Counted from the stretch's first letter, positions 11,090 to 36,225 are shown. The stretch is DNA of 39,328 nucleotides from Burkholderiales bacterium (GCA_036374055.1 DASUUN010000078.1:1-39328); one strand, 5' to 3'. Program-made: numbers and translations. The notes: generated by a model not told the origin, from the letters alone.

Positions 11090-11106
11090 CTTAAGGGAGC
11101 CTTAAC
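11090..11106 (-). promoter_or_regulatory. PmrA/QseB-type direct-repeat box CTTAAG-GGAGC-CTTAAC
   Basis: Two hexamers 11 bp apart. The box overlaps the PRC-barrel gene's stop and lies 26 nt upstream of the substrate-binding protein ATG. TAAAAT lies 16 nt from the proximal half-site. Confidence 0.55.
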
Positions 11107-11608
11107 GGCCCGTGTGCTGCACGCGAGGCTCGAGGCGAAGGTCCACGCGCAAGGTGCGCCTGGCGGCGTCTCGCGCGACGATCGCTGAGGCCGCGATTTC
11201 CAGCTTGCGTCCCGGAAGCAGCCAGTCGCGCGTCGCCGCGACCAGGCCGGCAACCGACCAGTCACCGTTGAGGAGCAGGTCATCGGCATGCCCGATGGGA
11301 CGCCCGCTCGCCTCGATGCGATAGCCCCACAGTGCCCGGCCGCTTACCAGCCGCGCGTGCTTGTCCGCGCTGATGCAGCGCCTGAGCTGCTCGCGTGTCA
11401 GGTCCACCCGCATCCCGGCCGACGGATCCAGCGCTACGCGCGCCGCCGGCACAAGTACCCGCCGCCCCGGAAACCGGTCGCCCTGGTCAATGGCCACGTA
11501 ATGCGGCGCGAGGGTGTCCTGTTCGAATAACACGTCGTTCAGCAGGCCGGCGGGACCGTCCCTTGCCGTGATGCAGCTGCCGCGCAGCGCGTTCAAGCGA
11601 TAAGCCAT
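11102..11608 (-). CDS. PRC-barrel domain protein (2 barrels, no signal peptide)
   Basis: Two PRC-barrel-like units: LRGSCITARDGPAGLLNDVLFEQDTLAPHYVAID and LWGYRIEASGRPIGHADDLLLNGDWSVAGLVA. Confidence 0.7.
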   Translation of the reverse strand: MAYRLNALRGSCITARDGPAGLLNDVLFEQDTLAPHYVAIDQGDRFPGRRVLVPAARVALDPSAGMRVDLTREQLRRCISADKHARLVSGRALWGYRIEASGRPIGHADDLLLNGDWSVAGLVAATRDWLLPGRKLEIAASAIVARDAARRTLRVDLRLEPRVQHTGR

Positions 11609-11630
11609 CGCCGCAACCTAGGCCGGCCGG

Positions 11631-11647
11631 CTTAAGGAGGGCTTAAG
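11631..11647. promoter_or_regulatory. PmrA/QseB-type box CTTAAG-GAGGG-CTTAAG in the divergent region between the PRC-barrel gene and the response regulator
   Basis: Perfect palindromic half-sites 11 bp apart. On the minus strand the order is box, 10 nt, TAGGTT, 6 nt, ATG 11608. The box lies 43 nt upstream of the regulator ATG. Confidence 0.7.
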
Positions 11648-11690
11648 CGGCGCAGCCTTGGCCGCGTACGCAACTTGCAAAGGTGGTGGC

Positions 11691-12350
11691 ATGCGCCTTT
11701 TGTTGGTGGAAGACGACCGCATGATCGGCGAAAACATCCGCGACGGGCTGGTGCAGGAAGGCCACGCGGTTGATTGGGTGCGTGACGGCTTGGAGGCCGA
11801 AGCAGCGATCCGCGGCGAGCGCTACGGTGCGGTGCTGCTCGACCTGGGGCTGCCGCGGCGCGACGGCATCGAGGTACTGCGCCGGCTGCGCGCGCTCGAC
11901 AACCCGGTCCCGGTGCTCGTCATTACGGCGCGCGACGCCGTGGCCGACCGCGTGCGCGGGCTGGATGCGGGCGCCGACGACTACCTGGTTAAGCCTTTCG
12001 ACCTGGACGAGCTGGCCGCCCGGGTGCGGGCCCTGACCCGGCGCGCCGCCGGACGCACGGCGGGGATCGTGCGGCACGGTGCGATTACGCTGGACCCGGC
12101 GAGGCGCGAAGTGCGCGTGAGCGGCAGGCCCGTAGCGCTGTCCGCGCGCGAGTATGCGGTGCTCGAAGCGCTCATCGAGCGGCCGGGGAGCGTGCTGTCG
12201 CGGGCGCAGCTCGAGGAGCGGCTCTACGGCTGGGGCGAAGAAGTGGCGAGCAATGCGGTCGAAGTCCACGTGCACAACCTTCGGCGCAAGCTGGGCGCCG
12301 ATCTCATCCGCAACGAGCGCGGCGTCGGCTATTCCATGCCGGTGACCTAG
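11691..12350 (+). CDS. OmpR/PhoB-family response regulator (PmrA/QseB/TctD-like)
   Basis: Receiver RLLLVEDD...LLDLGLP...DDYLVKPF and winged-helix LSAREYAVLEAL...VEVHVHNLRRKL...RGVGY. ATG 11691 lies behind AAGGTGG. Confidence 0.9.
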   Translation: MRLLLVEDDRMIGENIRDGLVQEGHAVDWVRDGLEAEAAIRGERYGAVLLDLGLPRRDGIEVLRRLRALDNPVPVLVITARDAVADRVRGLDAGADDYLVKPFDLDELAARVRALTRRAAGRTAGIVRHGAITLDPARREVRVSGRPVALSAREYAVLEALIERPGSVLSRAQLEERLYGWGEEVASNAVEVHVHNLRRKLGADLIRNERGVGYSMPVT

Positions 12351-13669
12351 TGTCGCTGCGGCGCCGCCTGCTGCTCGCGCTGCTCGGCGCGGTGCTCGCG
12401 TGCGGACTGCTGGCGAGCGCGGCCACCTACTACGCCGCGCGCTCCGAGGTGCAGGCGCTGCTGGACGAGGAGCTTCGCCAGGTGGCGCTGTCGCTGCGGG
12501 ATCACGCGCTGCTGGATCTGCGACCGCTCGGTTCGCCGGCGGGCGAGCACGGTCGCCGCGTCGTGGTGCAGATCTGGGACCGGCACGGATTCGCGAGCTA
12601 CCTCTCGAATGCCACCACGCCGCTGCCCTTGACCCTTACGCCCGGCTTCTCGACCCTGCCCCACGAGGGACGCGAGTGGCGCATGTTCACTCTGCGCGCG
12701 GGCGCGCAGGTGATCCAGGCGGCGCAGCCGACGGCCGAGCGCACCCAGCGCGCAGCAGCCGCCGCGCTGCGCGTGCTCGTTCCGGTGCTCGGCGCGCTGC
12801 CCTTGCTCACGGTGCTGGTGTGGCTGATCCTGGACCGCGGCTTCGCGCCGCTTTCGCGCCTGGCCAGCGCCGTCGGCGCGCGCAGCGCCCCGGCGCTCGA
12901 GCCGCTGCCCGCCGAGCGGGTGCCCGAGGAAGTGGCTCCGCTCGTCGGCGCGCTGAACAACCTTCTCGCGCGCCTGCGCGAGGCGTTCGACGTGCAGCGC
13001 CGCTTCGCCGCCGACGCGGCGCACGAGCTGCGCACGCCGCTCACCGCGCTCAAGCTGCAGATCCAGCTCCTCGAGCGGGCCCGGGGCGGCGACGAGCGCG
13101 CCACCGCCATTGCCGGCCTGAAGGAGCGAGCGCAGCGCGCGGAGCGCATCGTGCAGCAGCTCCTGGCCATGGCGCGGCTCGAGCCGGAAGCCGTCGAGCA
13201 CGCGCCGCAGCGCGTGGCCCTGGATGAAGTTGCGCGTGCGGTGGTCCGGGAGCTGTCGCCTCTGGCGACGCAGAAAGGCGTCCGGCTGCACCTCGCGCGC
13301 GCCCAGCCCGCCGGTGTACGGGGCGCGGAGGAAGCGCTGCGCCTTCTCGCCACGAACCTGGTCGACAACGCCATCCGCTACACACCGGCGGGCGGTGAAG
13401 TGCAGGTAAGCACGACGGGCGCGGAAGGTCTGGCGATTCTTCAGGTGAGCGACGACGGCCCGGGGATTCCCGCTGCCGAGCGCGAGCGGGTGTTCGATCG
13501 CTTCTATCGCGGCGCGGCGGCGCCGGAAGGCGGCAGCGGGCTCGGTCTGGCGATCGTGCGCCGGGTGGCCCAGCTCCATGGCGCTCGCGTGGAGCTGGCC
13601 GAGGGCCTGCAGGGCCGTGGGCTGACGACGCGCTTGGTTGCGCCGGCCGCAGACCAAGCGACGCCTTAA
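12350..13669 (+). CDS. sensor histidine kinase (QseC/PmrB-like, 2CSK_N-type periplasmic loop)
   Basis: GTG start overlaps the regulator stop (TAGTG). Two TM helices, H-box FAADAAHELRTPLT, N box NLVDNAIRYTP, G boxes DDGPGIP and GSGLGLAIV. Confidence 0.9.
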   Translation: MSLRRRLLLALLGAVLACGLLASAATYYAARSEVQALLDEELRQVALSLRDHALLDLRPLGSPAGEHGRRVVVQIWDRHGFASYLSNATTPLPLTLTPGFSTLPHEGREWRMFTLRAGAQVIQAAQPTAERTQRAAAAALRVLVPVLGALPLLTVLVWLILDRGFAPLSRLASAVGARSAPALEPLPAERVPEEVAPLVGALNNLLARLREAFDVQRRFAADAAHELRTPLTALKLQIQLLERARGGDERATAIAGLKERAQRAERIVQQLLAMARLEPEAVEHAPQRVALDEVARAVVRELSPLATQKGVRLHLARAQPAGVRGAEEALRLLATNLVDNAIRYTPAGGEVQVSTTGAEGLAILQVSDDGPGIPAAERERVFDRFYRGAAAPEGGSGLGLAIVRRVAQLHGARVELAEGLQGRGLTTRLVAPAADQATP

Positions 13670-13681
13670 GCGCCAGCTAAG
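13665..13681 (+). promoter_or_regulatory. imperfect PmrA/QseB-type box CTTAAG-CGCCA-GCTAAG upstream of DegQ-1
   Basis: Overlaps the kinase stop codon. It is followed by 10 nt, then CAAGCT (-10-like), then a 34-nt leader with an AGGAGA RBS before ATG 13732. Confidence 0.5.
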
Positions 13682-13731: not shown

Positions 13732-15150
13732 ATGAACTCAGCAGCAACCTTCAAGCGCCCGCTGATCGCGCTCGCCGTTGCCTCGGTACTGGCAGCGGGC
13801 TGCAGCGAAGTGACGCTTCCCGGCGTGCGCAATGCCAATGCGGTGGCCGTACAGCCCTTCGCCGCACAAGCAGCGGCGAGCGCCCTTCCAGACTTCGCCT
13901 CGCTGGTCGAGCAGCACGGGCCGGCGGTAGTGAAGATCGAGGTGAGCAAGGTGCAGCGCGCCTCGCTGCCCGAGCAGGCGCCGCCCCAGCTCGACGAATT
14001 CTTCCGGCACTTCGGCGTTCCGCGGCCCGAGGGCCGCCTCATGCCGAACCCCGCGCCCGCGCAGGGCGTGGGCTCGGGCTTCGTCGTCAGCCCGGACGGC
14101 ACGATCCTCACCAATGCGCACGTGGTCGACGGCGCCGGCGAAGTGACCGTGAAGCTGTCGGACAAGCGCGAATTCACGGCCAAGGTGGTCGGCGTGGATC
14201 GCATGACCGACGTCGCGGTCGTCAAGGTCGAAGCATCCGGCCTTCCGACCGTGAAGATCGGCGACCCGGCGAAGACGCGGGTCGGCGAATGGGTGGCGGC
14301 GATCGGCTCGCCGTTCGGCATGGACCACTCCGTCACCTCGGGCATCGTGTCGGCCAAGTCGCGCAACCTGCCGAACGAGCGCCTCGTGCCGTTCCTCCAG
14401 ACCGACGTCGCGGTGAACCCGGGCAACTCCGGCGGGCCGCTCTTCAACATGGCGGGCGAAGTGATCGGCATCAACTCGCAGATCTACAGCACCACGGGCG
14501 GCTACATGGGGATGTCGTTCGCCATCCCGATCGACGTGGCGATGAAGGTCAAGGAGCAGCTCGTGGCGCACGGCAAGGTGACGCGCGGGCGCATCGGCGT
14601 GACCGTCCAGCAAGTGACCCCGGCGCTCGCGCAGTCGTTCGGCCTGGACAAGCCGCGCGGCGCGCTCGTTTCGGGCATCGAGCCCGGCGGTCCGGCCGCT
14701 GACGGCGGCCTGCAGGCGGGCGACGTGGTCGTGGCCTTCAACGGCAAGCCGATCGCGAGCTCCGGCGAGCTGCCGGCGCTGGTGGCGGAGACCAAGCCCG
14801 GCGAGACCGTAAAGGTGGGCGTCGTGCGCAAGGGCGCCGAGCGGCAGATGCAGCTCACCGTAGGCGAAATGCCTTCGGAGCGCACCAGCGTCGCGGGCGC
14901 GCCGGCCCTGCAGCAGGGCAAGCTCGGCGTGTCCGTGCGGCCCGGCGACAAGGGGCTGGAGATCGAGCAGGCCGAGGGGCCGGCGGCCAAGGCCGGCCTG
15001 CGCGCCGGCGACATCATCGTCGGTGTCAACGGCACCCCGGTGCGCTCCATCGACGAGCTGCGAAACGCGGTAGAGGGCGCGGGCGGCAACCTGGCCATCC
15101 TCGTGCAGCGCGGCAACGCGCGCCTTTACGTTCCGGTGCAGATCGGCTAG
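13732..15150 (+). CDS. DegQ/MucD-family periplasmic serine endoprotease (HtrA), 2 PDZ domains
   Basis: Signal peptide. Catalytic motifs TNAHVV, DVAVVKV, GNSGGPL. Two PDZ segments (GALVSGIEPGGPAADGGLQAGDVV and GLRAGDIIVGVNG). Confidence 0.9.
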   Translation: MNSAATFKRPLIALAVASVLAAGCSEVTLPGVRNANAVAVQPFAAQAAASALPDFASLVEQHGPAVVKIEVSKVQRASLPEQAPPQLDEFFRHFGVPRPEGRLMPNPAPAQGVGSGFVVSPDGTILTNAHVVDGAGEVTVKLSDKREFTAKVVGVDRMTDVAVVKVEASGLPTVKIGDPAKTRVGEWVAAIGSPFGMDHSVTSGIVSAKSRNLPNERLVPFLQTDVAVNPGNSGGPLFNMAGEVIGINSQIYSTTGGYMGMSFAIPIDVAMKVKEQLVAHGKVTRGRIGVTVQQVTPALAQSFGLDKPRGALVSGIEPGGPAADGGLQAGDVVVAFNGKPIASSGELPALVAETKPGETVKVGVVRKGAERQMQLTVGEMPSERTSVAGAPALQQGKLGVSVRPGDKGLEIEQAEGPAAKAGLRAGDIIVGVNGTPVRSIDELRNAVEGAGGNLAILVQRGNARLYVPVQIG

Positions 15151-15229: not shown

Positions 15230-15871
15230 TTACTTGCGGTACTTGCTGTACTCGGACCGGCTCAAGCTGCCGTCGTTATCGGTATCAAGCCGCTGGAACG
15301 TCGATCCCGAGGAGGCGCTGCCGCCCGAGGAGGCGCTGCTGCCGCCCTGGCCGGACTGCGCTGTGGGCGAGCCGCCCGTGCACGCCACCTTGACCGAGCT
15401 GATGTCCTCGAAGAAGCCCAGCTTTTCGTCTAGGTCCGCCACCTTCTGCCCGGGCTTGAAGGTCGCCGCCCTTTGCTCGTAGTTCTCATTGTCGTACACG
15501 GTCAGCCTGGCCTTCGGCCCGACGGCGATGCTGTCGAATTCACCGCTCCAATCCGTGCCGAATGCGGTGCGCATGTTCGGCATGTCGACCGGACCGACCA
15601 GCGACAGCTGGTTGCCCTCGAAGTTGGTGCTGTCGTACAAGCGCGCCCAGCAGCCATTGCTGAAACTGTCCCGGCTCGCCACCTGAACCGGCACCAGCAC
15701 GATGAGCGGAGCGTTGGCGGCCGCGGTTGCGCCGCTCGAGCCGCTTTGCTTCTTGCTGCTCTGGCTGGGGCCGGAGGACTGCGGCTTATCCTGTTGGTTC
15801 TGCGCCATGGCGCCGGTTGCGGCGAAGGCCGCGGCTACACCTACTGCGAGAAGCTTCATCGAATGCATCAT
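15230..15871 (-). CDS. secreted beta/gamma-crystallin-like domain protein with C-terminal EF-hand
   Basis: Signal peptide MKLLAVGVAAAFAATGAMA. Greek-key motifs YDSTNFEG and YDNENYEQ. EF-hand loop DTDNDGSLSRSE. AGGAGG RBS. Confidence 0.7.
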   Translation of the reverse strand: MMHSMKLLAVGVAAAFAATGAMAQNQQDKPQSSGPSQSSKKQSGSSGATAAANAPLIVLVPVQVASRDSFSNGCWARLYDSTNFEGNQLSLVGPVDMPNMRTAFGTDWSGEFDSIAVGPKARLTVYDNENYEQRAATFKPGQKVADLDEKLGFFEDISSVKVACTGGSPTAQSGQGGSSASSGGSASSGSTFQRLDTDNDGSLSRSEYSKYRK

Positions 15872-15908: not shown

Positions 15909-15924
15909 CGCAAGCCCCGTTCCC
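15909..15924 (-). promoter_or_regulatory. sigma-54-type -24/-12 promoter GGGAACGGGGCTTGCG for the crystallin/EF-hand gene
   Basis: GG-N10-GC spacing with a TTGC -12 element. The predicted TSS is near 15898, giving a ~27-nt leader that contains the AGGAGG RBS. Confidence 0.5.
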
Positions 15925-15973: not shown

Positions 15974-15996
15974 CCCGCTGTAACGCGTTCAGCGGG
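15974..15996 (-). terminator. hairpin CCCGCTG-N9-CAGCGGG downstream of gene 16004..16486
   Basis: 7-bp stem, extendable through the palindromic AACGCGTT loop, 8 nt after the stop. No U-tract. Confidence 0.35.
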
Positions 15997-16003: not shown

Positions 16004-16486
16004 TCAACGCTTCTGGCTGGTGCGCAGGTCCGGCGGCAGCTGCACCATCGCCTGCTGGGTGTCGAACAGCGCCTGGTTCGCCTGCTGCATGGCTTCGTTG
16101 CGCCGCGGTCCGGCAGGCTGCTTCGCCATCGCCTGCACTGCATCGCGCAGGCGCTGCGCCGCCTCCTGCAGTCGCTCCATCGACTTCGTGTAATTGGGCT
16201 CGGTGCCCGCCCCCATGCGCAGCTCCGGCGGCAGGTCGATCATGGCGCGCTGCGTCTCCACGATGGCTTCGCGGGCTTCGTCTGCTGCGGCATTGCGCCG
16301 CTCACCGGCGGGCTGCTGCGCCATCGCCTGCACCGCCTCACGCAGCTTCTGCGCCGCCTGCTGCAGGCGTACCATCGACTCGCCGTAGTTGGTGGGCGCA
16401 GTTGCGCCGCTGCTTTGCGCGGATGCCGCTCCTGCGCCGCCCAGGAAAGCAGCCGCCACCACGCTAACCAAGAATTTGCGATCCAT
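16004..16486 (-). CDS. periplasmic all-helical protein with two ~58-aa tandem repeats (unknown family)
   Basis: GAGGAGG RBS and signal peptide MDRKFLVSVVAAAFLGGAGAASA. The repeats are NYGESMVRLQQAAQKLREAVQAMAQQPAG...LPPELR and NYTKSMERLQEAAQRLRDAVQAMAKQPAG...LPPDLR. Confidence 0.7.
   Translation of the reverse strand: MDRKFLVSVVAAAFLGGAGAASAQSSGATAPTNYGESMVRLQQAAQKLREAVQAMAQQPAGERRNAAADEAREAIVETQRAMIDLPPELRMGAGTEPNYTKSMERLQEAAQRLRDAVQAMAKQPAGPRRNEAMQQANQALFDTQQAMVQLPPDLRTSQKR
16025..16390 (-). repeat. in-frame tandem duplication (2 x ~174 nt, period 192 nt) inside gene 16004..16486
   Basis: Repeat units at about 16217-16390 and 16025-16198 encode clearly related peptide units. Confidence 0.7.
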
Positions 16487-16516: not shown

Positions 16517-16532
16517 TGCAAAGGCCGTTCCG
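16517..16532 (-). promoter_or_regulatory. sigma-54-type promoter CGGAACGGCCTTTGCA for gene 16486(-)
   Basis: GG-N10-GC spacing with a perfect TTGCA -12 element. The predicted TSS is near 16506, giving a 20-nt leader with GAGGAGG. Confidence 0.55.
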
Positions 16533-16547
16533 GGCACGGCCGTTGCA
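16532..16547 (+). promoter_or_regulatory. sigma-54-type promoter GGGCACGGCCGTTGCA for the PRC-barrel operon
   Basis: Matches GGCACG-N4-TTGCA. Its -24 element shares G16532 with the divergent promoter. GTG 16559 lies exactly 13 nt after the -12 C. Confidence 0.65.
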
Positions 16548-18322: not shown

Positions 18323-18338
18323 GGGCCCGCCGATTGCA
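18323..18338 (+). promoter_or_regulatory. sigma-54-like element GGGCCCGCCGATTGCA upstream of DegQ-2 (internal promoter candidate)
   Basis: GG-N10-GC spacing with a perfect TTGCA -12 element; the -24 lacks the A of GGCAC. The predicted TSS is near 18349, 26 nt before ATG 18375. Confidence 0.4.
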
Positions 18339-18374: not shown

Positions 18375-19811
18375 ATGAAAGTCCTCGCCTTCGTTCTAGC
18401 GGCCGTGCTGGCCGCGCCCGCCGCCGCCCAGGCTCAATCCCCGTCACAGGGCGCCACCGCGCCAACCCGGGAGGCCAACCTTCCGGATTTCACCGCGCTC
18501 GTGAAAAAGCAGGGACCGGCGGTCGTCAACGTAATCACTACACGCGCCGCTGCCCAAGGCGGGCCGGCGGGGCTGTCGCCCGATGATCCGTTCTACGAGT
18601 TCTTCCGCCGGTTCATGCCCGAAATGCCGGAAGGCGGGCCGCCGGGGCAGGGCGAAGGGCCGGGCGGCCAGGGCATCGGCTCGGGGTTCATCATCAGCCC
18701 GGACGGCTACATCCTCACCAACGCGCACGTCGTGGCCGGTTCGAAGGAAGTGACGGTGCGCATGGCCGACGCCAAGCGCGAGTTCAAGGCGCAAGTGGTG
18801 GGCACGGACGAGCGCACCGACGTGGCGCTGCTCAAGGTGGATCAGGACAACCTGCCGGTGGTGAAGCTCGGCAAGTCCAGCACGCTGGAGCCTGGCCAAT
18901 GGGTCGCGGCCATCGGCTCGCCGTTCGGATTCGCTAACACCATCACGGCCGGCATCGTCAGCGCCACCGAGCGCGCGCTGCCCGCGGAGACCTACCTGCC
19001 GTTCATCCAGACCGACGTGGCCGTGAATCCCGGCAACTCCGGAGGGCCGCTGCTCAACCTCGACGGCGAAGTGGTCGGCATCAACTCCATGATCTACAGC
19101 CGCACCGGCGGCTACATGGGCGTGTCCTTCGCCATCCCCATCGAAGAGGCGCTCGATGTCTCCAAGCAGCTGCGCGAGCACGGCAAGGTGACGCGCGGCC
19201 GCCTGGGCATCGGCATCCAGCCGGTCACCAAGGAGCTGGCGCAGTCCTTCAAGCTGGATTCCGCCAATGGCGTGGTGGTGGTGCAGGTCGAGCCGGGCAG
19301 CCCGGCGGAAAAGGCCGGCCTGCAAGTCGGCGACGTGATTCTCAGCTACAACGGCAAGACGATCGAAGAAGGCAACATGCTGCCGCGCCTGGTGGGCAAC
19401 ACCAAGCCCGGCCAGCAGGCGAAGCTCGAGATCTGGCGCAAAGGCGAACGCCAGACCGTGACCACGACGGTCGGCGAGCTCCAGCCACGGGCGGAACAAG
19501 CGGCGGCCGGCAAGGCACCCTCGGACGACAAGCCCAGCAAGCTCGGCCTTTCCGTGCGCGAGCTCGCGCCGGACGAGCGCAAGAAGCTCGGGGTCGAGTT
19601 CGGCGTGGTCGTCACCGACATCGCCCAGGGCGCCGCCGCGGCGCGCACGCCGATCCGGCGCGGCGACGTCATCGTGGCGGTCAACCAGGCGCGCTTCAAG
19701 AGCATCGAGGAGTTCAACAAGCTGATCGAGGCGCAGAAGAAAGGCGAGACCGTGGCGCTGCTCGTGCGTCGTGGCGAGGGTGCCATCTATGTCCCCATGG
19801 AAGTGGGGTAG
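18375..19811 (+). CDS. DegQ/MucD-family periplasmic serine endoprotease (HtrA), second copy
   Basis: Signal peptide MKVLAFVLAAVLAAPAAAQA. Catalytic motifs TNAHVV, DVALLKV and GNSGGPL. Two PDZ segments. By eye roughly 60% identical to the 13732 copy across the protease core. Confidence 0.9.
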   Translation: MKVLAFVLAAVLAAPAAAQAQSPSQGATAPTREANLPDFTALVKKQGPAVVNVITTRAAAQGGPAGLSPDDPFYEFFRRFMPEMPEGGPPGQGEGPGGQGIGSGFIISPDGYILTNAHVVAGSKEVTVRMADAKREFKAQVVGTDERTDVALLKVDQDNLPVVKLGKSSTLEPGQWVAAIGSPFGFANTITAGIVSATERALPAETYLPFIQTDVAVNPGNSGGPLLNLDGEVVGINSMIYSRTGGYMGVSFAIPIEEALDVSKQLREHGKVTRGRLGIGIQPVTKELAQSFKLDSANGVVVVQVEPGSPAEKAGLQVGDVILSYNGKTIEEGNMLPRLVGNTKPGQQAKLEIWRKGERQTVTTTVGELQPRAEQAAAGKAPSDDKPSKLGLSVRELAPDERKKLGVEFGVVVTDIAQGAAAARTPIRRGDVIVAVNQARFKSIEEFNKLIEAQKKGETVALLVRRGEGAIYVPMEVG

Positions 19812-29122: not shown

Positions 29123-29155
29123 GGAAACGGGCTTTCGGGCCCGTTTCCCTTTTTT
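29123..29155 (+). terminator. rho-independent terminator
   Basis: GGAAACGGGC-TTTCGG-GCCCGTTTCC is a 10-bp stem followed by CTTTTTT, starting 20 nt after the stop at 29103. Confidence 0.85.
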
Positions 29156-29191: not shown

Positions 29192-29278
29192 GTGCTGAAA
29201 GTGCTGGCCTGGATCGTCGGGATCATCTTCCTGATCGGCCTGCTGGTGGTGATCGGGGTCTTCGACTTCCTCTTCTGA
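29192..29278 (+). CDS. 28-aa hydrophobic peptide (single TM helix), not in the ORF track
   Basis: GTG lies 5 nt after GAGGA. The translation is MLKVLAWIVGIIFLIGLLVVIGVFDFLF, with G/C-rich third positions, ending at TGA 29276-29278. Confidence 0.45.
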   Translation: MLKVLAWIVGIIFLIGLLVVIGVFDFLF

Positions 29279-29791: not shown

Positions 29792-30190
29792 CTAGCCGCG
29801 TTCGCACAGGATCTTGAGCGAGGCCACGCGCCCTGGAAAGCCGAGCTCGCGCAGGTCTTGTACCTCGCGCTGTGGCTCCAGGGAGAAGACCTCTTTGCGG
29901 AAGCCGGGCTCGGCATACGCGACGAGCCTCGCCTCGGGGCCGACCACCACGCTTCGGGCCTGGCGGAAGAACTGCTCCTCGTTCAGCGTCCCGATCAATC
30001 CCGGACCGGCGATCGAGTTGATGTAGAGCGCGCCGGCCAGCCGCCCCATCGGGCGCTCGAAGCCAGGCTCGCTGAAAAAGCCCACCCAGCAGCCCTCGCC
30101 GTAAATCGGGTCGAGCTGCGGCGGGTTGATGTCCGCCGCGCCCGCGGACAAGACGGTCGAAAGCGCAGCGACAAGCGCGAGCCTCACCAT
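29792..30190 (-). CDS. secreted beta/gamma-crystallin-like protein (paralogue of the 15230 domain, degenerate Greek-key motifs)
   Basis: Signal peptide MVRLALVAALSTVLSAGAA. CWVGFFSEPGFERP...VVGPEARLVAYAEPGFRKEVF...SLKILC aligns with CWARLYDSTNFEGN...AVGPKARLTVYDNENYEQ...SVKVAC. The ATG overlaps the upstream stop (ATGGTGA). Confidence 0.6.
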   Translation of the reverse strand: MVRLALVAALSTVLSAGAADINPPQLDPIYGEGCWVGFFSEPGFERPMGRLAGALYINSIAGPGLIGTLNEEQFFRQARSVVVGPEARLVAYAEPGFRKEVFSLEPQREVQDLRELGFPGRVASLKILCERG

Positions 30191-30789
30191 TGCCTGTCCC
30201 ACTCGTGATCGTGCAGGCGCCGGCGCTCGTCCGACGGCTCGCGGCGCACGAATCCCTGCCGCTCCGATACATCGGCCGGCGGATGCTCCACCTGCCAGCG
30301 GGTCAACGGCGGAAAGCGCCCGTGGGCCAGCACCGCGGGCGGCATGTTGCGCCTGCCCCGGTCGGTCTCGACCACCACCCGCTCCACGCGGCCGGACCCC
30401 GGCTCGAACTCGATGTCCGCAATCGTGCCGATGCGGCCGTCGCCGGGATGGGTGACCGGCTGGCCGATGAGCCGGCCGGCGCGGCGAAACTTCGCATCTT
30501 CGCGCGACTTGTCATGGGCTACGGCATTGGTGAGATCCATGTTGAGCCGCATGTGCTCGTCCAAGGCGCGCACCGGCAGCGTATAGAACCTGTCGTGGGC
30601 ATCGAGGATCACGTACACCACGCGTCCGGCGCGCACATCGACGATCAGCTCCTCGACCGCGCCGATCTTCTCGCCGCGCCGGTTCTCTACGGTGTCACCC
30701 AACACGCGGTTAACCGCTGCCGCGCGCGCCTCCAGCACCGGCAGGCTTGCGACCGCCACGAACACGGCGATCATTGCGTTCTTGAGCAT
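30184..30789 (-). CDS. secreted PRC-barrel protein (2 barrels)
   Basis: Signal peptide MLKNAMIAVFVAVASLPVLEARA. Barrel units VLGDTVENRRGEKIGAVEELIVDVRAGRVVYVIL and LIGQPVTHPGDGRIGTIADIEFEPGSGRVERVVV. Confidence 0.75.
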   Translation of the reverse strand: MLKNAMIAVFVAVASLPVLEARAAAVNRVLGDTVENRRGEKIGAVEELIVDVRAGRVVYVILDAHDRFYTLPVRALDEHMRLNMDLTNAVAHDKSREDAKFRRAGRLIGQPVTHPGDGRIGTIADIEFEPGSGRVERVVVETDRGRRNMPPAVLAHGRFPPLTRWQVEHPPADVSERQGFVRREPSDERRRLHDHEWDRQW

Positions 30790-30800: not shown

Positions 30801-30816
30801 CGCACGAATCGTGCCG
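30801..30816 (-). promoter_or_regulatory. sigma-54-type promoter CGGCACGATTCGTGCG for the PRC-barrel/crystallin operon
   Basis: GGCACG -24 and GTGCG -12 elements. ATG 30789 lies exactly 13 nt after the -12 C. Confidence 0.6.
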
Positions 30817-30831
30817 GGCGCGGCGCTTGCA
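30816..30831 (+). promoter_or_regulatory. sigma-54-like promoter GGGCGCGGCGCTTGCA for ORF 30843
   Basis: GG-N10-GC spacing with a perfect TTGCA. It shares G30816 with the divergent promoter. GTG 30843 lies exactly 13 nt after the -12 C. Confidence 0.5.
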
Positions 30832-30842: not shown

Positions 30843-31430
30843 GTGCGCGTCCTTGTCGCCATTGCAGTGCACGCCTTCGCCCGTTCCTGGCGACCGGAGG
30901 GCGGAATCGCGCTTGGAAAGACCATCCTGCGCATCGGCGCAGCTGCGGCGCTGCTCTTTTCCAGCCTGGCCATTGCGCAGGCGGGCAAGGACTTGATCCG
31001 CGCCTCGGGCGAGGTGCTCGGCACGTTGCAGATCCGCACAAGCAGCGGGACCACGCGCGAACTGGTCAAGCTGCAGCGAGCCGACGGCGGCCGCGTGGTG
31101 GTCGATCTGGGCAAGGCCGCCGCGCGCGTGCAGCGGGGGGAACGCGTATTTGTCCAGGGGCATCCGGGGAGGATCAGCGGCAAGCCGGTGATTTTCGCCC
31201 GCTATGTCGCCGAGCTGCCGGAAGTGGATAGGCGCGGCGAGCCCGGTGCCTCGACCGGCACGAGCGGCGCGCCGCTCGGCCAATTGAAGCGCGACGATTT
31301 CGGCTACTACCACGACGGCTTGGAATGGACCTCGGCGGATCCCGCGTTCGAATCCTTCTATAGCGACGCCGAGAACGCCTGGGATGCCTACGGCACGACG
31401 TCGACCCGGCCGCCGCCTCGCACGAGGTAG
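30843..31430 (+). CDS. hypothetical secreted protein
   Basis: High GC3 and an internal signal-like segment KTILRIGAAAALLFSSLAIAQA. The start is uncertain: GTG 30843 fits the promoter geometry, and GTG 30867 is the alternative. Confidence 0.5.
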   Translation: MRVLVAIAVHAFARSWRPEGGIALGKTILRIGAAAALLFSSLAIAQAGKDLIRASGEVLGTLQIRTSSGTTRELVKLQRADGGRVVVDLGKAAARVQRGERVFVQGHPGRISGKPVIFARYVAELPEVDRRGEPGASTGTSGAPLGQLKRDDFGYYHDGLEWTSADPAFESFYSDAENAWDAYGTTSTRPPPRTR

Positions 31431-32092
31431 GTGGCGCCGTCGCGCGCACGGCCGCTGAAGGGCGCCGGAGTTTCCATGGCGAGCTGCATCGGGCGGCACA
31501 CGCTGTGCGTGCGCTCCGCGCGCGGCGGGAGCGAGAAGCGCCGCTCCCCGGCGCGATACGCCACTCGCTCGCCCGATCGGTTGCGCACCGTGAAGGTGAT
31601 CGCAGCGCTTTTCGGCCGGCCGAACATCTGCACCCCGTAATAGCGGCCGCTCGCGCTTTGGGCGATGCCGACGCCGACCTGACTCACCGCCGGGTCCACC
31701 ATGGCCTCGCGGTGCTCCGGGGACTGCTTCCAGCCTTCCACCATCTCGCGCGCCAGGGTGGGCGCGTCGTAGCCCTGCGAGCGGTAGAGGTAGGCGATGT
31801 TTTCCGACACGATGCACGCCTCGTAGCCCTGCGCCGCCGCGCGCTGCGCCGGCCTTCGGCCGTCGGCGGTATGGGAGTATTTGCCGCTTTCGGCCATGAA
31901 GCGCGCGAACTCGCGCGCGGCCGCCCGGAGCTCGGCGTTCGGCTGCACCGGCTCCAGCCCCTGCGCCTTTCGGAACGCATTGGTTCGCTCCGCCACCCCC
32001 TTTGCCGCCTGCTCGACATCGGCGGCAATCGCGTACGCCACGCCGCAGGCGAGCAGCATGGCGACGGTGAAGGCCGTGTCACGCTGGCTCAT
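31388..32092 (-). CDS. CAP/SCP (PR-1-like, YkwD-type) domain protein with C-terminal extension
   Basis: N-terminal hydrophobic segment, then TNAFRKAQGL...GKYSHTADGR...ENIAY...GWKQSPEHREAM...GVGIA, which is typical of CAP domains. ATGA overlap with the upstream DUF748 gene. Confidence 0.7.
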   Translation of the reverse strand: MSQRDTAFTVAMLLACGVAYAIAADVEQAAKGVAERTNAFRKAQGLEPVQPNAELRAAAREFARFMAESGKYSHTADGRRPAQRAAAQGYEACIVSENIAYLYRSQGYDAPTLAREMVEGWKQSPEHREAMVDPAVSQVGVGIAQSASGRYYGVQMFGRPKSAAITFTVRNRSGERVAYRAGERRFSLPPRAERTHSVCRPMQLAMETPAPFSGRARDGATYLVRGGGRVDVVP

Positions 32093-35000
32093 CGCGTGCC
32101 GCCCGCGGCGGCGCTGCGGCCGGTGTCCAGCGCCAGCACCGTGGGGACGCCTTCCTTTCCGGCTTCGCGGCTGTCCGGTGCATCCAGCCGCACGCGCGAG
32201 GGCTCCACACCGTGCGAAAGGAGCGCGGCGCGCACCGTCTCGGCGCGGGCGCGGGCGAGCGTCTCGACGCTTTGCGCATCGACCTGCAGCGTGCCGGCCA
32301 GCGCCTGGAGGAGCGCGCGCGGATAGCGCGGCTCCTTCTCGCGCAGCTCGAGCATCTGCAGCCGGTTGCCGACGCGCTCAAGGTACAGACGCTCCGCCGC
32401 CTGCAGCACCTTGGGATCGGTGAAATCGAGCGGCCCCCGCCCTTCGACGCCCGCGCGCTGCGCGATTGCGCGCCTTGCGGTATCGCGGCGCAGCGCCTCG
32501 AGGTCGGCCTGCGGGTCGTAGCCTCCTTGCACCGCGATGTCGAGCCGCGGGCGCTCCGCGAGCGCCTTGGCCACCTGCGCCACCGTTTCCTCCGCGGGCG
32601 GGGTAAGCGAAGCCGAGCCGGGCGCGAAAGCCACGCGGTCCAGGTTTTCGCCGCCCTTGCCGAAAACGCCGGCGAGGACGCGAAACGGCGCGGAGGCGAT
32701 CTTGCCGACCACGTTGCCCAGCGCGCGTGCGATCAGGCCGCCGAAATCGAACTGCGGGTCGTTCAGGTCGCCGCTCACCGGAATGTCGAGGTTGATCCGC
32801 CCCTTGGCATCGGCGAGCAGCGCCACCACCAGCTCGAGCGGCAGGTCGCGCACGCCGGCGCCGCGCACCTTGTCGCCAAGCTGCAGCTTCTCGAAGGTGA
32901 GATCGTTCTCCCCCACGAGACGCCCCTGGCGCACGCGGTAGCGCAGCTCGGCTGAAACGCGCCCCGACTCCACGCGGTACCCCGCGAAGCGCACGACGTA
33001 CGGGGTGAGCGCCGCGAGATCGAGGTTGCGAAAATTGGCGCGGATGTTGGTAAGCGAGGTCGGCTGGTCGAGATTCACCGTGCCGCCGATGCGCGCGGCG
33101 CCGTAGTCGCCCACGCGGCCCGAAAGCTGCACCCGCGCCGGATTGCCTGGCTCGGTGCTGAACCCGGTGACGGTCCCGGAGAGCTCGGCCACCGTGACGG
33201 CGAAGTCGTTCTCGAGCGAGCGGTCCGCAAAATCCAGCGTGCCGTTCTCGATGCGCAGCCGGCGCACGGCTACCTGCGTCTTCGGCGCATCGTCAGCGCC
33301 CTTCTTGTCGCTGCTCACGACCGCGGCGAAGTTGAGCTGGCCCGTCTCCTCGATTACCAGGCGCCCGGCCGGGGCGCGGGCCACCACTTCGCCGAGCTGC
33401 GCTCGGAAGGGGTCGAGCGAGAGCGCCGCCTCGTCGGTCCGCAGGCTCTCCCAGGCGAGCAGCAGGTCGCCGGAGGCGCGCTCCTCGATGCGCGCATCGC
33501 GCACGGCAAGCGATCCCTCGTAGCGCGCGCCTGCTTCATCCCACACGACTTGCCCGTCGACGGCAAGCCGCCCGGATACGATGTTGAGCGCCACGCTTTC
33601 GGGAAGCCAGCGGTTGGCTTGCGCGAGCGGCACGCCCTCGGCGTGCACCTGGAGGGCGGCGGCGAAAGGCTGGGTCGCTATCGTTCCGCTCGCGCGCACC
33701 GGTATCGGCTCCTCATCCGGCAGCACCACGTTGGCGTTGCGCAGCTCGATGCGCGCCGGCTCATCCTGCGTGGTGCTGAAGCCGGCAACTTCACCCTCTA
33801 TATCGCGCACCGCGAGCGCGACTTCGGGATGAGAAAGCTGCAGCGCGCCGCGTTCCACACGCAGCCGCTCCACCGACACCGGGGGGCGAGCTTCGCTTCG
33901 CGCCTCGCCGCCTGTCCCGTCCAACACAAGCCGGCCGGTCGGCGCCTGGGCGAGGACCTCGCCGAGCTCCGCGCGAAACGGTGCGAAGGACAAGGCCGCC
34001 TGGCCGGTCTCCAGATTGTCCCAGGCGACCAGCAGCTCACCCGAGCCGCGTTCTTCCAGGCGCGCCTCGCGCAGCGCGAGCGCACCCTCGTAGCGCGCGC
34101 CCTGCGCTTCGATGGCGAGACGGCCATCGGCATCCAGCCGGCCCGAGGCGACTTGCACGCCCGCGTCCTCCGGCAGCCAGGGATTGGCCTGCGCAAGCGG
34201 CAGCCCTTCGGCCTGCGCCTGCAAGTCGGCCGAAAAGGGGGCGATGCCGATGCGGCCCGACGCATGGATCGTCCCCTCGGGGGCGACGCGCGCCGTGGCG
34301 CTCGCCTCGAACGGCGCTTCCACCGGTAGGGCGATGCGAGGCGCCCGCAGCACGAGTTGCGAGAGCTCGACGCCGGCGTGCGCGAGGCGCGTGCCCTCGA
34401 GCGTCACCTCGCTCAACACGAGCTGCTCCCCGTCGTAAGCGTACGCGGCCGAGCCGCGGATCTGACCGCTGCCCGGCTCGCTCGCCGGCGCGGCGAGCGA
34501 CCAGACGGTCTCGAGCGCGACATCGGCGATGCTCAGCTTTCCCTGCGCCGACAGCGGATCGAGCGCGAGGCTGCCCTCGGACGACAAGGCGCCGCCCTGC
34601 GCGGTGCGCGCCTGCAGCTCATAGCGACCGCGCTCTCCTTGCCGGGTGGACAGGCCGTCGGCCCGAAGCTCGATCGCCTCGAAGCGAATCTCCACCGGCG
34701 CGGCGCGCGAGCGGTCGACAAAGCGCAGGGCGCCGCCCTGGACGGTAAGCTGCTCGATCAGCCAGGCAAGCCGCGGCTCGGCCGCCTCGCCGGCGCTGGC
34801 GTTGCGCGCCGCCGGCCAGTTCAGCTCGCCCTGCGGACCGAGCTCGACCTCGGCCCAGGGCTCGTGCAGCGCCGCCGCCTGCAGGCGCCAGGCATCGCTC
34901 CAGAGCGACGACCATGCGAGGTCGGCGCCGAAGCGCTGCGCGCGGGCGAGCTCGCGCCCGTCTGCGAGCACGCGCGCACCGTCCACCGAGAGGGTGAGGG

Positions 35001-35166
35001 AAAAAGGATTGGTGCGGACTTCGCCTAGCTCGAGCGCCAGCCCCAGCCGCGCGGCCCGCTCGATGAGCGCGTCGCGCACGAAACGCGGCGCAAGCCAGTA
35101 GCCGGCGGCCGCGTAGAGGACGATGGCAAGCCCGGCAATCGCCGCAGCGAGCAGGGCTTTGCGCAT
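32089..35166 (-). CDS. large envelope protein, DUF748/AsmA-like with internal domain duplication
   Basis: ATG 35166 (MRKALLAAAIAGLAIVLYAAAGYWLAP, an N-terminal anchor). Repeated blocks GLPLAQANPWLPE...GARYEGALALREARLEE are typical of DUF748 proteins as I recall them. Confidence 0.65.
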   Translation of the reverse strand: MRKALLAAAIAGLAIVLYAAAGYWLAPRFVRDALIERAARLGLALELGEVRTNPFSLTLSVDGARVLADGRELARAQRFGADLAWSSLWSDAWRLQAAALHEPWAEVELGPQGELNWPAARNASAGEAAEPRLAWLIEQLTVQGGALRFVDRSRAAPVEIRFEAIELRADGLSTRQGERGRYELQARTAQGGALSSEGSLALDPLSAQGKLSIADVALETVWSLAAPASEPGSGQIRGSAAYAYDGEQLVLSEVTLEGTRLAHAGVELSQLVLRAPRIALPVEAPFEASATARVAPEGTIHASGRIGIAPFSADLQAQAEGLPLAQANPWLPEDAGVQVASGRLDADGRLAIEAQGARYEGALALREARLEERGSGELLVAWDNLETGQAALSFAPFRAELGEVLAQAPTGRLVLDGTGGEARSEARPPVSVERLRVERGALQLSHPEVALAVRDIEGEVAGFSTTQDEPARIELRNANVVLPDEEPIPVRASGTIATQPFAAALQVHAEGVPLAQANRWLPESVALNIVSGRLAVDGQVVWDEAGARYEGSLAVRDARIEERASGDLLLAWESLRTDEAALSLDPFRAQLGEVVARAPAGRLVIEETGQLNFAAVVSSDKKGADDAPKTQVAVRRLRIENGTLDFADRSLENDFAVTVAELSGTVTGFSTEPGNPARVQLSGRVGDYGAARIGGTVNLDQPTSLTNIRANFRNLDLAALTPYVVRFAGYRVESGRVSAELRYRVRQGRLVGENDLTFEKLQLGDKVRGAGVRDLPLELVVALLADAKGRINLDIPVSGDLNDPQFDFGGLIARALGNVVGKIASAPFRVLAGVFGKGGENLDRVAFAPGSASLTPPAEETVAQVAKALAERPRLDIAVQGGYDPQADLEALRRDTARRAIAQRAGVEGRGPLDFTDPKVLQAAERLYLERVGNRLQMLELREKEPRYPRALLQALAGTLQVDAQSVETLARARAETVRAALLSHGVEPSRVRLDAPDSREAGKEGVPTVLALDTGRSAAAGGTR
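33151..34290 (-). repeat. in-frame tandem duplication (2 x ~570 nt, ~190 aa units) within the DUF748 gene
   Basis: Residues ~293-482 and ~483-672 align. For example FSADLQAQAEGLPLAQANPWLPEDAG pairs with FAAALQVHAEGVPLAQANRWLPESVA, and GARYEGALALREARLEERGSGELLVAWDNL pairs with GARYEGSLAVRDARIEERASGDLLLAWESL. Confidence 0.75.
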
Positions 35167-35431
35167 TACTGCTTTCTTGCGAGCGCCCGCGCAAGCTCCT
35201 TCTTGCTCATCCCCGAGCGTCCGGCGTGTCGGGAAGCTTCTGTCGGCCAGGCATGAAGTTCTCCTTTCACGCCTTTTGCAAACAAAGTTCGTGCCTGAAC
35301 CCAGGCCGTTCTTTGCATTCGGGCGTCGCTCTGCGCGCGGCACGCGTCCCGGGAGGGAAATCGGTGCAACGGCCCGCTGTAAGAAAGTCGCGCGCCTTCG
35401 GCGGCAGGCGCGCTCTCGCTGCGCAGCAGCC

Positions 35432-35447
35432 GGGCACGCTGTCTGCT
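35432..35447 (+). promoter_or_regulatory. sigma-54-type promoter GGGCACGCTGTCTGCT for PRC-barrel gene 35491
   Basis: GGCACG-N4-CTGCT. The predicted TSS is near 35458, giving a 33-nt leader with an AAAGGAA RBS. Confidence 0.65.
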
Positions 35448-35490
35448 CTCAGGAGAGTCTGCGGTTTACCCTCGTTAAAAGGAACTCATT

Positions 35491-36225
35491 ATGAAATTCG
35501 CCAAGCCATTCCTCATCAGCTTCTCGCTGCTCGCCTTTGCCGGCGCCGCCCAGGCACAGAGCGGTCAGCAGCAAGGCGCGCGGCAACAGCTAGGCGTGCA
35601 GCAGCAATCGCAGCAAAAGGGCGAGATGCGCACGAGCGAGCTGATCGGCCAGAAGGTGAAGGACAGCCAGGGCAAGGAGCTCGGCGAGATCAAGGACGTG
35701 GTGCTCGACTTGCAGGGCGGCAAGGTGCACGCCGCGGTGCTCGAGTTCGGCGGCTTCATGGGCGTCGGCGAGAAGAACTTCGCCTTCCCCCTCCGCCAGC
35801 TCGAGCCCGGCGGCGAGCAGGGGCAGCTGACGATGAACATCGACAAGCAGAAGCTCGAGAACGCCGAGGGCTTCGCGCAGGGCCAGTGGCCGGCGATGGA
35901 TGACGAGTACTGGGGCCGCATCGGCGGCCAGGCGAGCACCGGCGAGACCCGGCCGCAGGGCGAGCCGCAGCGCAAGGTGCTGGTGCGGGCGAGCGAGCTC
36001 GACGGCAAGACGGTGCAGGACAACAGCGGCCAGGACGTCGGCGAGATCCGCCACGTGATGGTCGACATGAAGAGCGGCCAGCTGCGCGACATCGTCGTCG
36101 ACGTGAAAGACGCCGGCCAGGCACGCGTGCAGGCGAGCTCGCTCTCCATAGGTACCGGCGACAAGCTGGTGCTCGACATGGACGCCGGGCAGCTCAAGCG
36201 CCAGGGCGGCGGCAACCGTCAGTAA
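35491..36225 (+). CDS. secreted PRC-barrel protein (2 barrels), paralogue of 27937 without EF-hands
   Basis: Signal peptide MKFAKPFLISFSLLAFAGAAQA. Barrel units LIGQKVKDSQGKELGEIKDVVLDLQGGKVHAAVLEFGGFMGVGEKNFAF and LDGKTVQDNSGQDVGEIRHVMVDMKSGQLRDIVV. Confidence 0.8.
   Translation: MKFAKPFLISFSLLAFAGAAQAQSGQQQGARQQLGVQQQSQQKGEMRTSELIGQKVKDSQGKELGEIKDVVLDLQGGKVHAAVLEFGGFMGVGEKNFAFPLRQLEPGGEQGQLTMNIDKQKLENAEGFAQGQWPAMDDEYWGRIGGQASTGETRPQGEPQRKVLVRASELDGKTVQDNSGQDVGEIRHVMVDMKSGQLRDIVVDVKDAGQARVQASSLSIGTGDKLVLDMDAGQLKRQGGGNRQ

Follow-up and report, generated by a model that had tools for sequence, protein, structure and literature searches.

PRC barrels are among the most widespread bacterial domains that lack a function beyond the reaction-centre H subunit, RimM, YlmC and the archaeal division proteins; only four PRC functions are known, and many bacterial members are uncharacterised (10.1101/2023.03.28.534520). 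The archaeal CdpB1 and CdpB2 (PDB 8QZO, 8ONW), as well as MTH1859 and YlmC, dimerise, and their dimers link up into open-ended filaments (10.1101/2023.03.28.534543); these proteins work as self-associating adaptors and filaments. Here, we analysed a 39,328-nucleotide (nt) stretch of DNA (DASUUN010000078.1:1-39328, hereafter the window; ~69% G+C) from an uncultured soil Burkholderiales bacterium, the genes of which were mapped via codon-position G+C. Between positions 11102 and 36225, the window encodes seven PRC-barrel proteins (P1-P7), among genes for DegQ-type proteases, EF-hand proteins and crystallin-like proteins. The fold is that of the archaeal adaptors; however, CdpB1 and CdpB2 are single-barrel, cytoplasmic, SepF-binding proteins with ~15% identity to those of the window, which are (except P1) exported proteins of a Gram-negative bacterium, built as covalent tandems of two or four barrels, some of them with EF-hands. 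The exported PRC/EF-hand/crystallin set is known in kind and functionally uncharacterised, whereas its predicted sigma-54-type promoters and a second predicted regulon beside it are new here. The overall picture that we propose, with a probability of roughly 0.45, is that of Ca2+-dependent, self-associating periplasmic PRC scaffolds that are co-regulated by sigma-54 and kept in order by DegQ.

The seven open reading frames (ORFs) named in a preliminary description of the window were all present, with translations as described there, and six of them scored above the gathering score of the Pfam PRC model (PF05239, 21.2 bits). On the forward strand, P2 (16559-17773; the GTG at 16568 may be an alternative start) reached 87 bits in four stretches, in agreement with four barrels followed by a C-terminal EF-hand pair. 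P3 (17770-18321, 48 bits) and P4 (19789-20415, 70 bits) contained two stretches each, as did P5 (27937-29103, 83 bits), a monocistronic gene whose product has hydrophilic low-complexity linkers and also ends in an EF-hand pair, and its paralogue P7 (35491-36225, 87 bits). P6 (30184-30789, 53 bits, two stretches) lies on the reverse strand. The seventh, P1 (reverse strand, 11102-11608), scored 16.6 bits, below the gathering score. Nevertheless, all five of its relatives from related genomes (30-38% identity) matched PRC, with a best E-value of 4e-13, and the P1-family profile aligned with the P5/P7-family profile in hhalign (70% probability, E 4e-5), so P1 is a diverged two-barrel PRC protein, assigned through its relatives.

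The 16 barrel units counted previously could be confirmed, as they aligned in register with pairwise identities of 12-51%. P5 and P7 were ~50% identical and all other units 12-41%, hence the set consists of old and diverse paralogues, and the "expansion" of the preliminary description does not hold as a recent event. Its six signal peptides stood: by a crude heuristic rule and by eye, an n-region, an h-region and an AxA-type N-terminus could be recognised in each of P2-P7. In P1, a signal peptide is missing, and there is no upstream coding room for one; it is cytoplasmic and predicted to belong to another regulon (see below), and thus drops out of the periplasmic set to which it had been assigned. 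The six exported PRC proteins are cysteine-free and hydrophilic, with grand averages of hydropathy from -0.19 to -0.76; in the exported set as a whole, the only two cysteines are located in the crystallin proteins.

The predicted structures agreed with the profile searches, so that hidden Markov models and models of the fold both assign the PRC barrel. For P7, an AlphaFold2 prediction from an alignment of 61 sequences had a mean predicted local distance difference test score of 82, and both barrels exceeded 90. In a Foldseek comparison with the PDB, the top 50 matches of this model were all PRC barrels, among them 8QZO, MTH1859 (1PM3), 3HTR from Rhodopseudomonas palustris and many H subunits of reaction centres. 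The whole P7 tandem aligned with the CdpB1:CdpB2 heterodimer (8QZO) over ~195 columns, with E-values from 5e-12 to 2e-10 and target-normalised template modelling scores of 0.69-0.78. Therefore, the two linked barrels are predicted to pack like the CdpB heterodimer, that is, each tandem pair would be an intramolecular copy of a PRC-barrel dimer. The model of P2, based on nine sequences, showed four barrels. The nearest relative of known structure is 3HTR (profile E 1.3e-13), and the window proteins share with such uncharacterised bacterial PRC proteins a glycine-rich GG.LG.G.K loop and a GF..WP.M.D..W tail.

A regular-expression scan of all called proteins with the 12-residue pattern D-x-[DNS]-x-[DNSG]...[DE] located seven canonical EF loops in four proteins, exactly as claimed before. 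The loops occur as pairs in P2 (DRDGNGFIEDSE and DLDRDDRISRDE), P5 (DRDNDGSLSRME and DKNSDKKLSRSE) and EF-PG, and as a single loop in Cry1EF (DTDNDGSLSRSE); P2 and P5 are indeed the two PRC proteins that end in EF-hand pairs. EF-PG (23306-23893, forward strand), the EF-hand/peptidoglycan-binding protein of the preliminary description, is exported and passed both EF-hand_5 (36.5 bits, cutoff 25.9) and PG_binding_1 (56 bits). The Pfam EF-hand scores of the other three were just below the respective cutoffs (P2, 25.2 vs 25.4 bits; P5, 21.3 vs 25; Cry1EF, 20.8 vs 25.9). Lanmodulin EF loops typically carry proline at position 2, and none of the seven loops does. EF-hands normally fold in pairs, so Cry1EF, which has just one, would require a partner. 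Pseudomonas aeruginosa EfhP and Caulobacter CaBP are likewise exported, contain canonical EF loops and are linked to stress adaptation (PMC9132961, PMC13171946); those are stand-alone EF-hand proteins, whereas the EF-hands of the window are appended to PRC, crystallin or peptidoglycan-binding domains.

Cry1EF (Cry1; 15230-15871, reverse strand) is an exported protein with a nitrollin-like beta/gamma-crystallin domain (Crystall_3, 43 bits, cutoff 27.3; PDB 3ENT/3ENU, E 5e-25) ahead of its C-terminal EF-hand. The exported Cry2 (29792-30202, reverse strand) is more diverged: it scored 17.7 bits on Pfam Crystall, below threshold, and qualifies as crystallin-like through its homology to Cry1 only (BLASTP E 3e-12). 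Microbial Ca2+-binding beta/gamma-crystallins carry an N/D-N/D-x-x-S/T-S motif in each Greek key (PMC3551895). In Cry1, the canonical motif was unmatched, with no match in key 1 (GEFDSI) and a partial one in key 2 (FEDISS). Consequently, the two crystallin domains reported earlier are real, but they are nitrollin-like, without the canonical Ca2+ motif, and cannot be counted as Ca2+ binders.

Three shuffled modules thus make up most of the exported set: tandem PRC barrels (P2-P7), nitrollin-like crystallin domains and EF-hand pairs. EF-PG, the helical repeat protein Rep and the protease DegQ2 belong to the set as well. The EF-hand pair behaves as a mobile module, since it is found on PRC, crystallin and peptidoglycan-binding proteins and, in relatives, as stand-alone small proteins. 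The "Ca2+-linked" reading of the set is plausible from its sequences; in its favour, EF loops occur in 43% of the P5/P7 family, and CarSR/BqsRS, which the two-component system next to the set resembles, responds to Ca2+ and Fe2+.

The second line of evidence came from the promoters, which the preliminary description had proposed to be shared. Sigma-54-type -24/-12 elements first emerged when the sequences 5' of the exported genes were compared with those of their orthologues. We searched for the consensus TGGCACG-N4-TTGCW, with GG and GC fixed and at most two mismatches, and found 11 matches in the window, compared to 3.6 ± 2.1 in shuffled sequences. Eight of these 11 lie 12-44 nt upstream of a start codon on the same strand, while only ~6% of the window is intergenic. 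The genes concerned are Rep, P2, DegQ2, EF-PG, P5, PCC, g30843 and P7. The sites of Rep (16517-16532, reverse strand) and P2 (16532-16547, forward strand) are arranged back to back within 16517-16547, as CGGAACGGCCTTTGCA and GGGCACGGCCGTTGCA; those of DegQ2, EF-PG (TGGCACGCGCTTTGCG), P5 and P7 are at 18323-18338, 23257-23272, 27882-27897 and 35432-35447, respectively. The g30843 motif (30816-30831) is back to back with the P6 promoter region, where a weak sigma-54-like motif with three mismatches is located (30801-30816); two other sites with three mismatches precede Cry1EF (15909-15924) and the frameshifted cry3. Thus, the proposal of shared promoters was supported for the exported genes, as predicted promoters of the sigma-54 -24/-12 type, and not for P1, which has PmrA/BqsR-type boxes instead.

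The same motif was present upstream of orthologues in related genomes and contigs (compared loci are denoted L followed by a number). It was found 5' of P2 (L002, L003), of Rep and EF-PG (L089), of P5/P7-like genes (L085-L091, L093) and of an EF-hand/PRC operon (L091), and the back-to-back Rep/P2 elements were conserved in L002, L003 and L089. Among 78 genome loci with a full-length DegQ gene, 12 had the motif upstream of it, including 10 of the 14 closest, as opposed to 1 of 78 in the reversed-motif control. The looser consensus, with up to three mismatches and without fixed GG/GC, was not enriched in the window (75 matches vs 74 expected), and the total number of matches over 80 genome loci was close to that of the reversed motif (105 vs 94), the signal being positional only. 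Since a looser search without position shows no enrichment, the case for these promoters comes from their positions and from the comparison of genomes.

There is a general link between sigma-54 and the exterior of bacteria (PMC3162934). Alphaproteobacterial stress PRC genes use EcfG promoters (GGAAC-N16/17-CGTT) instead; we found no match to an EcfG-type promoter (GGAAC-N15-18-CGTT) in the window. In the Psp and ZraSR-ZraP systems, sigma-54 promoters drive periplasmic or envelope stress proteins. The window differs from these systems in having no adjacent enhancer-binding protein, unrelated proteins and many more transcription units. Three other candidate elements were rejected. A 12-mer common to the upstream regions of P2 and P7 was not above chance, and in P2 it coincides with the -12 element. 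The heptamer GGAACGG found 5' of Cry1, Rep and P6 is weak alone and is explained as the -24 half of the sigma-54 promoters. The palindrome CCGCTGAA-N5-TNCAGCGG, considered as an activator site, was rejected since in L085 and L090 its position is 3' of the promoter; for the same reason, it is more likely a transcribed hairpin or an element of the repetitive extragenic palindromic type. It recurs in 5' leaders or intergenic regions of exported-protein genes (window 15975-15995, reverse strand, after the Rep stop codon; L085 9941-9961; L086-L088; L089 9222-9242; L090 9943-9963).

Coding overlaps link the PRC, DegQ and crystallin genes into operons: P2 and P3 overlap by 4 nt, DegQ2 and P4 by 23 nt, and P6 and the start of Cry2, with which it is probably co-transcribed, by 19 nt. 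At least eight transcription units (Rep-Cry1, P2-P3, DegQ2-P4, EF-PG, P5, PCC, g30843 and P7) have sigma-54-type promoters, and we therefore predict that they form one RpoN regulon. Rep (16004-16486, reverse strand), divergent from P2, encodes an exported helical protein of 160 residues with two repeats of ~55 residues (consensus NY..SM.RLQ.AAQ.LR.AVQAMA.QPAG.RRN...LPP.LR); it had no significant match in Pfam or the PDB, and it was kept beside P2 or Cry1 in L002, L003 and L089. The product of g30843 (30843-31430, forward strand; 195 residues) is probably exported as well, with a signal-peptide-like segment, and had no Pfam match.

DegQ2 (18375-19811, forward strand) is an HtrA/Do-family periplasmic serine protease with Trypsin_2 and two PDZ domains, and DegQ1 (13732-15150, forward strand) is a second Do-family protease, 47% identical to it. 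Both exceeded the TIGR02037 cutoff of 416 bits (DegQ1, 473; DegQ2, 498), as expected for the two DegQ-type proteases noted previously; "DegQ" is a name of convenience, given that neither the DegQ- nor the DegP-specific equivalog model was reached. In a rival reading, DegQ would have the exported PRC proteins as its clients, adaptors or regulators, which could for example deliver substrates to its PDZ domains or gate them, and the module would essentially be a protein quality-control system. The position of DegQ2 between P3 and P4, its coding overlap into P4, its promoter of the same type, and the adjacency of DegQ and PRC genes in L002-L004, L085, L089, L090, L093 and a 32-kb contig from the Joint Genome Institute (JGI) would all suit such a role. 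So would a small PDZ-only protein (~110-145 residues) that follows DegQ in relatives (L005-L018, e.g., L018 4742-5227) behind a sigma-54-type promoter of its own; in the window, we saw no counterpart. However, most DegQ orthologues with a sigma-54 promoter have no PRC gene nearby, P5, P6 and P7 are not beside any DegQ gene, and the C-termini of the PRC proteins are all different, with no common PDZ-ligand-like motif. We therefore regard a primary role in DegQ function as quite improbable, and in the scaffold picture DegQ2 would provide quality control or turnover.

A second group of genes appears to be controlled differently. The two-component system at 11658-13669 (forward strand; regulator start probably ATG 11691, kinase 12350-13669) is PmrAB/QseBC/BqsRS-like. 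Its best NCBIfam matches were below the equivalog cutoffs, both for the regulator (QseB, 243 vs 345 bits; PmrA, 234 vs 330) and for the kinase (QseC, 235 vs 475; PmrB, 199 vs 314). On these scores, the system is of the same broad subfamily as PmrAB and BqsRS and is not an equivalog of either. The kinase has an HExxE motif (HEGRE, residues 105-109) in a predicted periplasmic loop between two hydrophobic segments; the Fe3+-sensing PmrB has HExxE as well, and the Fe2+/Ca2+-responsive BqsS has the related RExxE.

The motif CTTAAG-N5-CTTAAG had 12 matches in the window, compared to 2.7 expected, and six sites with at most two mismatches (five with at most one) were all intergenic. They are placed 5' of the Peripla_BP_6 gene (11090-11106), between P1 and the response regulator (11631-11647), 5' of DegQ1 (13665-13681), between the YdjM and Chalcone_3 genes (36874-36890), 5' of a hydrolase gene (38410-38426) and before an ion-channel fragment (38758-38774); the first two flank P1. 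Boxes were present at equivalent places in L009, L018, L085, L089 and L090. The Salmonella PmrA box has the same form (PMC3973317), and P. aeruginosa BqsR/CarR recognises TTAAG-N6-TTAAG (PMC4358008), as in the PAO1 site CTTAAGCGAGCCTTAAG (PMC13522522). We read the boxes as the putative operator at which the neighbouring QseB/PmrA-like regulator acts. In consequence, we predict a second, cation-sensor-dependent regulon that would include P1, DegQ1, Peripla_BP_6, the sensor operon, and the YdjM and hydrolase genes. The exported PRC/EF genes have sigma-54 promoters and no CTTAAG boxes in front of them, so that the window would contain two regulons side by side, the other one comprising DegQ2 together with the exported proteins of the PRC, EF-hand and crystallin types. 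The OmpR-family regulator, the operator architecture and the periplasmic HExxE motif are shared with BqsRS/CarSR and Salmonella PmrAB; unlike in those systems, no PepSY genes (bqsP/Q) or lipopolysaccharide-modification genes adjoin the system of the window.

The Peripla_BP_6 gene (9996-11063) and a small DUF4398 gene (9688-10008), both assigned by Pfam on the reverse strand, tend to accompany DegQ and the two-component system in a conserved manner, and recur in L089, L009, L018, the 32-kb JGI contig and the contig of a distant P2 relative.

BqsRS/CarSR responds to Fe2+ and millimolar Ca2+ and controls Ca2+ homeostasis (PMC13522522), and it promotes cationic stress tolerance (PMC4358008, PMC13522522). 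The set might accordingly be a periplasmic buffer or tolerance system for cations (Fe, Ca, other di- or trivalent metals) under a PmrAB/BqsRS-like sensor, in which the EF-hands are sinks and the PRC barrels inert carriers. Beyond the boxes and the HExxE kinase, many stand-alone EF-hand proteins in related clusters point in this direction, as do ChaB and Na+/Ca2+ exchanger (Na_Ca_ex) genes that adjoin the PRC/EF-hand cluster in related contigs (L085 14572-14955, L089 2569-2952, L093 1576-2598; neither gene is in the window). Against it, the boxes do not precede the exported PRC/EF genes, seven EF loops would provide a small buffering capacity, and the loops lack the lanmodulin-type proline. A role mainly in cation buffering is, in our view, very unlikely.

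The gene neighbourhood was compared across related genomes and metagenome contigs, and the recurrence of PRC-barrel, DegQ and EF-hand genes, whose absence would have counted against the earlier proposal of a joint function, was found. PRC, EF-hand and DegQ genes, together with crystallin, DUF748 or two-component system genes in varying combinations, recur in about ten independent contexts despite rearrangement. In L002-L004, Rep is divergent from P2-P3-DegQ. In L085-L088 (metagenome-assembled genome (MAG) GCA_035649175.1), genes for DegQ, a thiamine pyrophosphate (TPP) enzyme, PRC, PCC, an EF-hand protein, DUF748 and a hydrolase follow the order of window positions 18375-38392; in L090, DegQ and PRC are divergent, and a crystallin-like gene comes next, ahead of PCC, EF-hand and DUF748; L091/L092 have four PRC genes (one an EF-hand fusion), an EF-hand protein, Chalcone_3 and Crystall_3; and L093 has PRC, EF-hand, DegQ and PRC, adjoining a Na+/Ca2+ exchanger. 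The 32-kb JGI contig encodes three PRC proteins and three small EF-hand proteins, along with DegQ, Peripla_BP_6 and a two-component system; a further PRC gene on it is divergent from DUF748. A distant P2 relative (29% identity) is found on a contig with PRC, M48 peptidase, Peripla_BP_6, a response regulator/kinase pair, a small PDZ protein and DUF4398. The close relative L089 combines Peripla_BP_6, DegQ, hydrolase, PRC, M48, PRC, Crystall_3, Rep, a single-barrel PRC, EF-PG and PRC-EF, with the EF-PG orthologue directly upstream of the PRC-EF gene.

In the window itself, the 25-kb span taken before as one module is not continuous, as metabolic genes (TPP enzyme, MR/MLE, flavin adenine dinucleotide-dependent oxidase) lie in between; the secreted-protein genes of L089 adjoin one another, with none of these metabolic genes in between. 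From these gene orders, the association is real and, as far as seen, confined to one Burkholderiales clade and unassigned metagenome contigs. The closest DegQ2 relatives were likewise from uncultured soil Burkholderiales MAGs, with at most 73% identity. In 80 species genomes collected through DegQ2, a PRC gene was within 8 kb of the DegQ orthologue in eight, all among the 16 closest, and the PRC gene in those eight was mostly P1-like, beside DUF4398 and the small PDZ protein.

This distribution would also be expected if the proteins were independent general-stress PRC proteins without a joint machine, inherited as a block in one clade, with the EF-hands as no more than the structural Ca2+ sites that are typical of exported proteins. 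The age of the paralogues (12-41% identity except P5/P7), the interspersed metabolic genes and the restriction of PRC-DegQ proximity to the closest genomes are compatible with that explanation, and elsewhere, as in Alphaproteobacteria and cyanobacteria, uncharacterised PRC genes are isolated members of stress regulons (PMC6599016, PMC9804601). The family is, moreover, huge and mostly stand-alone (20,060 clusters). This explanation does not account as well for sigma-54 promoters common to exactly these exported genes, for the translational coupling of PRC genes with DegQ and crystallin genes, for a gene set that stays adjacent even after rearrangement (L089, the 32-kb JGI contig, L091, L093), or for the repeated fusion of the same EF-hand module to PRC, crystallin and peptidoglycan-binding proteins. 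Therefore, we consider independent stress proteins unlikely.

The two families of EF-hand-bearing PRC proteins differ in spread. The P2 family (four barrels and EF-hands) had 11 homologues, all metagenomic, and its alignment found no relative among 185,579 species genomes and the JGI metagenome contigs. The P5/P7 family comprised at least 148 clusters in a word-limited search; among the matches listed, 116 of 120 had the same kind of signal-peptide N-terminus and 52 of 120 had EF loops. At a limit of E <= 1e-3, the P5/P7-family profile matched 20,060 cluster representatives (50% identity), of which 818 reached E <= 1e-30. Signal-peptide-like N-termini were present in 81% of the best 147 profile matches, some matches had up to ten PRC stretches, and the EF-hands were either N- or C-terminal to the PRC pair. 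Exported multi-PRC proteins are thus common in databases, where they are labelled "PRC-barrel domain-containing protein" or "sporulation protein YlmC". We also noticed that the signal peptide of the P5/P7 family is unusually conserved (M..KP...SFSLLAFAGA) and that an invariant motif, GF..G.WP.MDDEYWG, joins the two barrels.

In literature text searches, we found no paper joining PRC barrels with the periplasm, EF-hands or RpoN, and none on EF-hand fusions of PRC or on operons with DegQ and crystallin genes; no link to the Burkholderia lxa-locus literature was found either. A tblastn search of 72,556 plasmids with P7 returned single-barrel matches only (31-43% identity), from Burkholderia, Cupriavidus, Legionella, Sinorhizobium and sphingomonads. 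Two of the three plasmid contexts inspected were uninformative. The third, on pC3 of Burkholderia multivorans (L094, NZ_CP020399.1, 300842-313132), encodes a cytoplasmic single-barrel PRC protein, and a second sigma-54 gene is located 3 kb away, in an island with Ku, DUF892, DUF1328, DUF3008, CBS and DUF4142 genes. Over 12 kb there, we counted at least seven sigma-54-like promoters in the correct orientation, one of them before the sigma-54 gene itself, and the PRC protein has the GF..WP.M.D..W tail of the window family. From this one example, PRC barrels may be connected with sigma-54 outside the uncultured clade as well, and the island, with a second rpoN and a related PRC-barrel gene, offers a culturable entry point.

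Taken as a mechanism, the scaffold picture would run as follows. An enhancer-binding activator encoded elsewhere would switch the regulon on in response to a cue of the envelope, cation or dehydration type. If each tandem pair is an internal dimer, the exported PRC proteins could act as self-associating periplasmic protein-protein scaffolds; the EF-hand pairs would make their folding, stability or association Ca2+-dependent, and EF-PG would tie the assembly to the cell wall. The low-complexity hydrophilic linkers of P5, P7 and Cry1EF, and the BON, CBS, DUF892 and ChaB genes that recur nearby in relatives, fit a stress, cation or dehydration programme.

Several observations weigh against this picture. 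In the P2 model, the EF-hand region and the flanking helices were predicted at low confidence, and self-association is suggested by a single-chain model and by archaeal cytoplasmic relatives at ~15% identity. The sigma-54 promoters are predicted, and the sites of P2, PCC, g30843 and P6 are just 12-21 nt from the annotated start, which implies very short leaders or mis-set start codons. Neither an enhancer-binding protein (GAFTGA) nor rpoN was found in the window or in ~90 related loci. Moreover, as all recurrences come from one clade or unassigned contigs, some of the synteny may be simply inherited, and metabolic genes interrupt the cluster in the window.

A bolder version of the scaffold picture is that the PRC proteins polymerise as in CdpB filaments and, with their EF-hand, crystallin and peptidoglycan-binding partners, build an inducible, Ca2+-crosslinked, wall-anchored periplasmic lattice that protects soil Burkholderiales against dehydration or cation stress under sigma-54 control. 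We consider this lattice highly doubtful; if true, it would be the first function for a family of ~20,000 protein clusters. The exported PRC forms are now linked to a promoter class (sigma-54) and to a set of partners (DegQ, EF-hand, crystallin and peptidoglycan-binding proteins, DUF748), and they are placed next to a two-component system of the cation-sensing kind, which turns a domain of unknown function into testable hypotheses about Ca2+ and envelope stress in soil bacteria and about how their periplasm is organised.

Other features of the window are as follows. The large DUF748/AsmA-like envelope protein (32089-35343, reverse strand) has an OmpA-like segment and scored 705 bits on PF05359; its gene is divergent from P7, and the DUF748/PRC divergent pair or adjacency recurs in related contigs. 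A third crystallin-like gene, cry3 (20625-20946, forward strand), lies 3' of P4 and has an apparent frameshift near 20870. In a three-frame translation, its N-terminal part is Cry2-like in one frame, and the C-terminal part (GFHHEVRSFKLFC) is in another; no clear signal peptide was seen, and cry3 is either a pseudogene or an assembly error. The left flank (2881-9704) encodes PAS-GGDEF-EAL, MshE-type T2SSE ATPase, GYD, ATG22-like major facilitator superfamily transporter and SpoIIAA-like proteins in an order identical to that of L090, so the two contigs come from related genomes. At the opposite edge, an Ion_trans_2 (K+-channel-like) ORF (38808-39134) is preceded by several CTTAAG boxes (38729-38785). 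P5 is followed by a clean intrinsic-terminator hairpin (29123-29148), beyond which a 28-codon ORF (29192-29278) encodes a purely hydrophobic peptide, VLKVLAWIVGIIFLIGLLVVIGVFDFLF.

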